IMG/VR virus record: IMGVR_UViG_2563366972_000006
Source: a virus
Taxonomy: Duplodnaviria > Heunggongvirae > Uroviricota > Caudoviricetes
Length of the DNA stretch: 34,196 nt
Direction: 5' to 3' (one strand)
Shown here piece by piece: positions 20,601-23,600 of this stretch (its first letter is position 1; every line of letters begins with the position of its first letter). The position numbers are program-made.

Positions 20601-23600
20601 TTTGCGGCTGGGCATATAAATATCCTTATACAAGTGTGTGAAAAAGGACATTATTATTTGTAAATCTTATGTAATCCTTAAGGGGGTCTGACGTGGAGAA
20701 ATGGGCACTGGTAGCGATACTGGTGCCTTTTTTATTGGTGGGATGCGTCAGCCTGGATAAGGCGCGCCAGTTTTTCGATACCGCGTCTCAGGTCTGCCAG
20801 CTTATTGATGACTTTCGACGGTGTACGCAGAACTGATCGCCGGTAAGAACAGAATATTTTTCTGAAAAATGAAGGGTGTGCCCGCGTGCAGAAAGCATGA
20901 AATTCTGTGTTTGTGGTTATTCAATAAAATAAAATCTTTCTTTCGCCGCGAATACTCAAATGTTGATCAGCGCCCGGTGCGGCGACGGGCTTCGATATCA
21001 GGAGACGATGATGGAAAAAACAGAAAACAAACCGATTGTAATTGGTGCTGCTGCTGTTCCGTTTAAGTTTGAGTTGTCTCAACTGGTGGAGATGCGCATC
21101 AGTGATGAATGGGGTGAGGTTAAAGCCCGCGCGCAGTATGCGGATGGCGAAAACCAGTACTTGCTCCACTATAAAGCAGCTGATGGTCGCGCCACGACGG
21201 AGTGGTTTGGTGAGTCAATGCTGGAAGCAACAGAAGATGATCGCCATCCGGGGTGTCCGGTATTTGCCTGCATGAAATTACCGGAAGGCGCAGTCGTTAC
21301 TGAATAACAGGTATTACAGCAGTTCTTCGGTGATGGGCTGCTGTAATGCAGGTGTTAGAGTGTGTGTAAATGATGATTGCTCCCATTTTCACGGGTCCTT
21401 TCCAGAACCTGAAACACCGGGGGTCATGGGACGCGCAAAAACGCGCTATTTATGAAAATTTTCCAGGAAAAAGCATGTCGGTACTTCTCGCGCGTAACTG
21501 TTTGTTTTTTCAGATATCGTATCTGTAAAAGGTCCGACATGATATCGCTCAAAAATGCCTTATTCAGGCGTTTTCATGTCGGACCTTGTATTTGATATGG
21601 AAATGTATTGTGAAAGTTAACAAAAAGAAACTTGCTGAAATTTTCAACGTGGATCCACGAACGATTGAACGTTGGCAGTCTCAGGGGCTGAGAGTTTTGT
21701 CGGGGGGAGGCAAAGGTATCGAGGCCATGTTCAATACTACAGAAGCCATTGAGTGGTATGCGCAGCGGGAAAAAGATATCGAAAATGAAAAGCTCCGCAA
21801 AGAACTGGAAGATTCGCGTGCGGCTGCAGAATCAGATTTACAACCCGGCACCATTGACTATGAACGCTACCGGCTCACTAAAGCACAGGCTGACGCACAG
21901 GAGCTGAAAAATGCCCGCGAAGAAGGGCTGGTGCTGGAAACGGAATTGTTTACTTTCATTCTGCAACGTGTGGCTCAGGAGATTTCGGGAATACTTGTAC
22001 GTGTGCCGCTGACATTACAGCGTAAATATCCGGATATTTCACCGTCACACCTTGATGTGGTGAAAACTGAAATTGCGAAAGCCTCCAATGTTGCAGCTAA
22101 AGCCGGTGAAAACGTGGGCAGGTGGATTGATGATTTCAGACGCACAGAAGGCAGCTAATGCAGCCGGTGCGATAGCCACAGGGCTTTTATCTCTCAATAT
22201 TCCGGTTCCACTGACGACGGTTCAGTGGGCTGATCAAAATTATTATCTGCCGAAAGAATCTTCATATACCCCCGGGCAATGGGAAACCCTGCCGTTTCAG
22301 GTTGCCATTATGAACAGCATGGGAAATGACCGGATCCGCACCGTTAATCTGATTAAATCGGCGCGCGTTGGTTACACCAAAATGCTGTTGGGGGTGGAGG
22401 CTTATTTTATTGAGCATAAATCCCGTAACAGTCTGCTTTTTCAGCCAACAGATTCTGCGGCAGAAGATTTCATGAAATCTCATGTTGAGCCAACGATCAG
22501 GGATGTCCCTGCATTGCTGGAGCTGGCTCCATGGTTCGGAAGAAAGCACCGCGATAATACACTCACCCTGAAGCGTTTTTCCTCCGGCGTGGGGTTCTGG
22601 TGCCTGGGCGGTGCCGCAGCTAAAAACTACCGTGAAAAATCTGTGGATGTGGTCTGCTATGACGAACTCTCCTCGTTTGAACCGGATGTGGAAAAAGAAG
22701 GCTCGCCGACGCTGCTTGGCGATAAACGTATCGAAGGCTCGGTATGGCCTAAATCCATACGTGGCTCAATGCCGAAAATTAAAGGCTCCTGCCAGATTGA
22801 GAAAGCCGCGAATGAATCTGCGCATTTCATGCGGTTTTATGTCCCTTGCCCTCATTGCGGGGAGACCCAGTATCTGAAGTTTGGCGATGATGCGACGCCG
22901 TCTGGCCTGAAATGGGAGAAGGGTAAACCGGAAACGGTGTATTACCTGTGTGAACATAATGGCTGTGTGATCCGGCAGTCGGAACTTGACCAGACCGACG
23001 GACGCTGGATTTGTGACAATACCGGGATGTGGACGCGTGATGGCCTGACATTTTACAGCGCCGGTGATGAGGAGATGCCGCCACCGCGCTCAATCTCGTA
23101 CCATATCTGGACGGCGTACAGTCCGTTCACCACCTGGGTGCAGATTGTCTACGACTGGCTGGATGCGCTGAAGGATCCGAACGGCGTCAAGACGTTTATT
23201 AACACCACGCTCGGGGAACCCTATGAAGAGGCCGTGGCAGAAAAACTGAGCTTTGAGTTGTTGCTGGAAAAGGTCTGCCACTATGGCGCGCAGGTCCCCC
23301 TGCGGGTGGTTTACCTGACCGCCGGGATCGACTCCCAGAAAGATCGCTATGAAATTTATGTCTGGGGCTGGGCTCCCGGCGAAGAAGCCTTTCTGATTGA
23401 TAAGCAAATTATCATGGGGCGACCGGAAGACGAGGACACCCTTAAACGTGTTGATACGGTGATCCGGAAAAAATATCGTCATGCTGACGGTACTGAAATT
23501 TCCATTTCCCGTGTCTGCTGGGATACCGGTGGTATCGACCAGGACATTGTGTATCAACGTTCCAGGAAACACGGCACTTTTTTTGTGCTTCCCATAAAAG

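Follow-up and report, generated by a model that had tools for sequence, protein, structure and literature searches.

The cos sites of phage lambda (J02459) and phage 21 (M81255, OL657228) are the closest described relatives of the locus reported here. Complex cosB sites have the order R3-I1-R2-R1 with R2 inverted (PMC9026076), and the distance between cosN and R3 is critical in lambda and phage 21 (PMC9026076, PMC4669245). Base pairs 56 and 59 of R3 are important, G:C at these two places being specificity positions that set phage 21 against lambda, and the difference in R box and recognition helix between the two phages results in a more than 1000-fold discrimination in packaging (PMC4669245); the recognition helix of the lambda protein comprises residues 17–24 (PMC9026076). 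The simple cosB of phage N15 and of phage-inducible chromosomal islands has an R3 box at about bp 48–65 from the left end (PMC4669245, PMC9026076), without I1, R2, and R1. Complex cosB sites have been known and dissected for decades, and we add nothing new on their mechanism. Here, we describe such a site in a stretch of 34,196 nucleotides (IMG/VR record IMGVR_UViG_2563366972_000006, Caudoviricetes; hereafter the window), which is a Rac-like lambdoid prophage. Three repeats in front of its small terminase gene are very probably the R3, R2, and R1 boxes of a cosB of the phage 21 packaging-specificity class. For annotation, this would tell where packaging of an uncultivated Rac-like prophage starts, where its genome probably ends on either side, and which specificity class it belongs to.

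The repeat CATGTCGG occurs at 21474 (plus strand), 21534 (minus), and 21575 (plus), directly 5' of a Nu1-type small terminase gene. The first-pass annotation had proposed a direct, an inverted, and a second direct copy of a slightly longer motif, and all three strings are found in place: CATGTCGGTAC at 21474–21484 (plus), GTCCGACATG at 21532–21541, and CATGTCGGACC at 21575–21585 (plus). It had also placed them within 120 bp upstream of the start, which has to be corrected, i.e., the first copy begins 136 bp before the GTG at 21610 and the copies themselves span 112 bp. The features of the site and of the two terminase genes, in plain order, are:

21393–21399, plus strand: cosQ (GGGTCCT), the packaging-termination subsite, identical to lambda and phage 21 at the aligned position.
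21420–21435, no strand: predicted cosN, i.e., the 12-nt cohesive end GGTCATGGGACG (21422–21433) with 2 bp on each side.
21434–21445, plus strand: CGCAAAAACGCG, which flanks cosN on the right; 25 of the 26 distinct variant-type sequences have it unchanged.
21446–21462, plus strand: CTATTTATGAAAATTTT block, overlapping the annotated I2 and common to lambda and phage 21; 15 of 17 columns invariant in 49 relatives.
21471–21486, plus strand: R3 box, AAGCATGTCGGTACTT, bp 50–65 from the predicted left end; 11 of 16 columns invariant.
21495–21507, minus strand: I1, predicted IHF site, AAACAAACAGTTA, bp 74–86; 12 of 15 columns of 21494–21508 invariant.
21529–21544, minus strand: R2 box, AAGGTCCGACATGATA in plus-strand letters, inverted relative to R3 and R1; 13 of 16 columns invariant, the lowest entropy of the region.
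21572–21587, plus strand: R1 box, TTTCATGTCGGACCTT; 12 of 16 columns invariant.
21610–22158, plus strand: small terminase subunit gene (Nu1/gp1 type), GTG start, 182 residues; Pfam Phage_Nu1, 2.7e-81.
22130–24046, plus strand: large terminase subunit gene (gpA type); Pfam GpA_ATPase, 9.7e-54, and GpA_nuclease, 2.1e-68.

The stretch 21446–21690 is 82% identical to the phage 21 cos over 244 bp, and a BLAST search of 21300–21700 against deposited phage genomes returned phage 21 and its relatives, at 82% and from 21446 on. Position 21446, at the CTATTTATGAAAATTTT block, is the left edge of this homology, which ends there at CTATTTATG. Inside it, order and orientation (R3, I1, inverted R2, R1) and the R-box core TGTCGG/CCGACA are those of phage 21. 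In M81255, I2 is annotated at 196–210, R3 at 216–231, I1 at 238–252, R2 at 273–288, and R1 at 316–331, and the R3, R2, and R1 boxes of the window align with the three R boxes annotated there; the R3 box also aligns with that of OL657228. Counted from 21422 as bp 1 of the left end, a position that comes from spacing, symmetry, and recombinant junctions (see below), the window has R3 at 50–65, I1 at 74–86, R2 at 108–123, R1 at 151–166, and the gene start at 189, compared with R3 at 50–65, I1 at 74–86, R2 at 107–122 (opposite orientation), R1 at 150–166, and the gene start at 189 in OL657228; with that left end the cosB spacing holds, and no subsite is more than 1 bp from its phage 21 coordinate. 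The gaps between landmarks are, for the window and phage 21 respectively, 30 and 30 bp (CTATTTATG to R3), 58 and 57 bp (R3 to R2), 43 and 43 bp (R2 to R1), and 33 and 34 bp (R1 to the start). R3 has G at bp 56 and 59 (21477 and 21480), as in phage 21, and I1 differs by one mismatch from the IHF consensus WATCAANNNNTTR, being the only match with one mismatch or fewer in 21380–21620; it lines up with the I1 annotated in both phage 21 records.

The earlier suggestion of a cosB with Nu1-type R sites in direct, inverted, and direct orientation is thereby upheld: the region shares homology with the phage 21 cos, the copies fall where R3, R2, and R1 are annotated in phage 21 with the IHF site in the gap from R3 to R2, and the gene downstream, which had been called Nu1-like, has the Pfam match listed above and a helix-turn-helix identical to that of phage 21 gp1. 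cosQ, cosN, and I1 are parts of the site that go beyond that first description. With lambda, the site shares architecture, spacing, cosQ, the CTATTTATGAAAATTTT block, and a homologous Nu1 protein, whereas the lambda R box, CGTTTCC(G/T)TTCT, and recognition helix, RTIQNWQE, are different (RTIERWQS in the window); the position of R3 is shared with N15 and the simple sites of the chromosomal islands, but the window cosB is tripartite. The boxes lie between cosN and a Nu1-type gene, R2 is inverted, an IHF match sits between R3 and R2, and R box and recognition helix are both of the 21 type, the box having G:C at bp 56 and 59; in every property that can be read from sequence, the site would qualify as a complex lambda-like cosB and as a member of the phage 21 specificity class.

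Short repeats may come together by chance, or they may serve an unrelated transcription factor as operators. Three copies of some 8-mer in 120 bp are found in 26% of the dinucleotide shuffles of the window, and a fourth CATGTCGG is located at 19103, in the endolysin gene, both of which are compatible with such an origin; the 10-mer, with one mismatch allowed, showed no enrichment across the whole window. The repeats are longer than a 10-mer, as R2 and R1 share CATGTCGGACCTT without a difference, and R3 agrees with it at 11 of 13 positions. An extended-match test was adopted in place of the 10-mer enrichment and the bare 8-mer triple, neither of which was significant. A triple as good as the real one did not appear in 400 shuffles, and in the real window the test was passed only by the cosB site and by a tandem array at 15226–15293. 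The boxes are moreover orthologous to annotated phage 21 sites, and no promoter-like site was found in 21200–21750. We regard a chance cluster or a set of operators as scarcely credible, and we return to the R boxes of a cosB.

The protein that would bind these boxes is in agreement with them. Its N-terminal domain matches the lambda small terminase in PDB (6hn7, 6e-37; 1j9i, 3e-21), residues 8–27 are identical to phage 21 gp1, and residues 13–24 (21646–21681) carry a helix-turn-helix that matches the R-box type; residues 17–24 read RTIERWQS in phage 21 as well. A scan for the small subunit in one genome per species gave only distant relatives, with identity of 58% or less and unfit for footprinting, and IMG/VR was used, from which 80 loci were gathered by the small subunit protein, not by a DNA motif, and the window was added. 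All 68 loci with phage 21-type boxes, i.e., the CATGTCGG type, have NVDPRTIER at residues 13–21, and all 12 loci with AGATCC-type boxes have ECDVRTIT(G/S) at the same residues. No other internal evidence speaks as strongly as this natural co-variation of helix and box for the boxes being binding sites of the small subunit.

The loci with the other box form a sister cosB class (L023–L033 and L056 in our set, about 140–30 bp 5' of the small terminase start, and L003, the SerU-LTIIb prophage), whose boxes AGATCCGTTCTTCTT, AAGAAAGGATCT, and GAGATCCTTTCTTCTT occupy the same three places in the same orientations. The SerU-LTIIb prophage cos (KU052038) and the IMG/VR loci L023–L033 are otherwise very close to the window, with small subunits 95–96% and large subunits 97–99% identical, and with a variant cosQ-cosN module and a right flank in common (89% over 81 bp). 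In one sister, L024, the small subunit differs from that of the window at 7 of 182 residues, 5 of them within positions 13–21, and the window protein follows the sister, not phage 21, in its wing and in the remainder. With different R boxes and a different helix, the packaging specificity of SerU-LTIIb and L023–L033 is probably not that of the window. Among deposited phage genomes, the ECDVRTIT(G/S) helix occurs only in the SerU-LTIIb prophage, and the combination of AGATCC-type boxes with this helix may represent an undescribed packaging specificity. For the study of terminase specificity, a natural series is at hand, i.e., near-identical small subunits that differ almost only at residues 13–21 and come with matching R boxes.

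Among the relatives there are 61 distinct upstream sequences, 49 with phage 21-type boxes and 12 with the different box. Over the 49, mean column entropy is 0.14 bits in R3, 0.19 in I1, 0.08 in R2, and 0.20 in R1, compared with 0.44–0.58 bits in the spacers. The spacer between R2 and R1 exists in several quite different versions. Each version of this spacer (21545–21571 in the window, and its homologues) has its own short A/T-rich inverted repeat, for which there is no statistical covariation support.

R2 and R1 form an inverted repeat, which may be mainly an RNA hairpin in the leader of the late transcript that controls how well the small terminase message is translated or how stable it is. 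The segment 21520–21625 folds at −35.8 kcal/mol (z = −5.55), a fold that no shuffle equals, and the hairpin ends about 13 nt 5' of the start codon. The stem, however, consists of the invariant R boxes themselves, so the fold adds no support of its own; the covariation term was unfavorable (+0.91) for the variable spacer, where only 1 of 21 pairs has a compensatory change. R3 lies outside the hairpin, yet it is the same box, and box type and recognition helix change in concert, as would not be expected of an RNA function. It is thus very improbable that the hairpin is the main function of the repeat, and protein-binding R boxes are preferred. No terminator-like site was found in cosB, the only ones found being in the terminase gene, and Rfam gave no match in the cos region.

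To the left of cosB, the resemblance to phage 21 is limited to cosQ, of which GGGTCC is kept in every aligned relative and which falls inside a box annotated as "R4" in M81255. The cosN is of another kind. Left flank, cohesive end, and right flank are TTACG, GGGCGGCGACCT, and CGCGG(G/T)TTTTC in lambda and phage 21, with CG on both sides of the cohesive end, and CACCGGG, GGTCATGGGACG, and CGCAAAAACGCG in the window, with GG on the left and CG on the right. The phage 21 cosN carries the flank CGCGGTTTTTCA where the window has CGCAAAAACGCG; in lambda, CGCGGGTTTTCG stands at this place. The first-pass annotation had pointed to an element GCGCAAAAACGCGC just upstream of the repeats, and its location, 21433–21446, is right; it is better described not as a separate element but as the right flank of cosN, made up of G21433, CGCAAAAACGCG, and C21446. 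The window cosN is not the same as the cosN in lambda and phage 21, and therefore we regard the site as a cosB of the 21 type with a different cosN module attached at the CTATTTATGAAAATTTT block, rather than as a duplicate of the phage 21 cos.

This variant module is present in the SerU-LTIIb prophage, in vB_EcoM-705R4, and in 26 distinct IMG/VR sequences. It can be written as ACACCG(G/A)G followed by GG.......ACG and by CGCAAAAACGCG, and it was seen also at the loci L022–L037, L102–L119, L143–L156, L003, and L007. At positions 3–9, the predicted overhang differs between prophages with large subunits that are 97–100% identical, and the flanks of the module are nearly invariant; relatives at about 96% identity have the lambda-like GGGCGGCAGCGG. 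In INPHARED we found no complete phage with the variant cosN and mapped ends, the only carriers being SerU-LTIIb (a partial record) and vB_EcoM-705R4 (site internal).

The cohesive end was placed at 21422–21433 because of the distance to cosB, the distance to cosQ, a peak of symmetry, and the junctions of recombinants. In this register, the distance to CTATTTATG is 12 bp, as in lambda and phage 21, and the distance from cosQ is 22 bp, as in the nearest lambda-like relatives. Twofold symmetry is highest here, with 4.19 of 8 pairs over the 26 distinct sequences, and the true register of the lambda-like set has 4.86; in two loci (L027 and L029) GTC..GAC is replaced by GTA..TAC, a compensatory change within cosN. 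In two recombinants (L060 and L142), lambda-like and variant modules switch exactly at the predicted top-strand nick, which would be the outcome expected from cohesive-end joining between different phages. The nicks are predicted after 21421 on the top strand and after 21433 on the bottom strand. A second choice was the register with the canonical CG left flank, i.e., GGGGTCATGGGA at 21420–21431 with CG on both sides; it puts cosN 2 bp farther from cosB, has 2.62 of 8 symmetric pairs compared with 4.19, is off the recombinant junctions, and is taken as the less likely of the two.

A cos with such a cosN may also be a relic, in which the prophage is defective or the cos no longer works and the boxes are inherited and unused. 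The window is prophage-like and activity is a property that sequence cannot show, its cosN strays from the lambda/21 consensus, and homologous loci have pseudogenized neighbors, e.g., a frameshifted portal gene in E. coli A36. In the window itself, the genes for packaging and head are open reading frames of full length. Across the 49 distinct sequences, the R boxes and I1 hardly vary while the spacers drift, and across 26 distinct sequences the variant cosN retains the same length and flanks together with its twofold symmetry, a single compensatory change included; taken together, these patterns point to selection on the sites. We consider a relic unlikely.

It is possible, and we put it somewhat short of an even chance, that the whole cos is a natural chimera, in which a 21-type patch, made of cosB and about 21 codons from the start of the small terminase gene, is fused at CTATTTATGAAAATTTT to a rule-breaking class of cosN with variable positions 3–9 in its predicted overhang. 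If so, packaging specificity would be swapped as one module of some 200 bp. Should the predicted ends be right, large subunits of the lambda type put up with, or are under selection for, much more diversity of cohesive ends than lambda, phage 21, and N15 suggested. The variable cosN module is relevant to the ways in which packaging specificity is exchanged or evaded by phages and satellites. We consider the modular swap of cosB with its recognition helix and the variable cosN as modest side findings.

Several points weigh against the assignment of the repeats to a phage 21-class cosB. The statistic of the bare 8-mer cluster is by itself not significant. At bp 52 and 54, the R3 box of the window, given in the list above, departs from phage 21 R3, AATCGTGTCGGTACTT. 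The small subunit has a wing (residues 28–45) unlike that of phage 21, with 12 differences over residues 28–48, and its minor-groove contacts may therefore differ from those of phage 21. A CG flank and a GGGC start are reported as conserved in lambda-like phages (PMC4669245, PMC9303873), and the window cosN is unlike lambda and phage 21 at such positions; therefore, the nick positions are ones that we infer.

By analogy with lambda and phage 21 (PMC9026076, PMC4669245), from which all steps are taken, the site may work as follows. IHF would bend the DNA by about 180 degrees at I1, and a dimer of the small subunit's DNA-binding domains would span the bend and insert its two recognition helices into the R3 and R2 major grooves, with R1 as a third site. 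The bound small subunit would anchor and position the large subunit at cosN, about 50 bp leftward. The gpA-type large subunit is the enzyme that would nick cosN, and its staggered nicks would leave 12-nt 5' overhangs. Packaging would run rightwards after cosN cleavage, and cosQ would act at termination.

The window is assigned to the Rac-like lambdoid prophages because of its gene content, with packaging and head genes on the right and RecE, RecT, RalA, a YdaT-like gene, and sok in its left part. Downstream of the terminase genes follow:

24050–24259: gpW gene, after the large terminase gene.
24256–25827: lambda-family portal protein gene, after gpW.

They are followed by genes for a protease/scaffold and for a major capsid protein E, and all of these genes, from the terminase subunits to the major capsid protein, are open and full length. 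The cos region recurs elsewhere: in one IMG/VR contig, IMGVR_UViG_3300028456_000005, the cos region and the large terminase gene are identical to those of the window, its layout is found again among the fetched IMG/VR viral contigs, and 47 of 5426 complete E. coli genomes have a version of it with at least 80% of the region covered. On the 5' side of cos, open reading frames (ORFs) resembling endolysin and Rz were assigned by eye, without a family search. Between the lysis genes and cos there are two cargo-like ORFs, one at 20034–20651 (minus strand) that is histidine-phosphatase-like with a hydrophobic segment at the N terminus, and one at 20960–21307 (plus strand) of 115 residues with no Pfam match. 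In the SerU-LTIIb prophage, the same slot houses the LT-IIb enterotoxin genes.

Other repeats and RNA genes were seen in the window. Rfam matches include RalA (the RalR antitoxin small RNA) and sok, and the intervals 1557–1735, 14735–14906 (sok), and 17538–17691 are listed together with tRNAs; tRNA-Thr(TGT) and tRNA-Gly(TCC) are located just 3' of a Q-like antiterminator gene (16644–17186). The array at 15226–15293 is a perfect 9-bp tandem array (TTGTTGTAT, 7.6 copies) in intergenic DNA, flanked by the sok RNA and a DUF1367 gene (15758–16357). At 9072–9137, within a DUF1376 ORF (8680–9537) and just 5' of an IstB/DnaC-like ATPase gene, (A)TGTTCAAAC(A) occurs three times, once inverted; by position only, these repeats look like replication-origin iterons inside an initiator gene. 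The S49 protease/scaffold gene (25778–27433) contains at 26800–27305 a 138-bp tandem repeat of 3.7 copies with 78% matches, which codes for iterated units of ALPEAKGREQLAQ...AAAP. Finally, CTGGATTA occurs three times in 70 bp at 1980–2048, at the 3' end of the RecT gene (1985–2875, minus strand).

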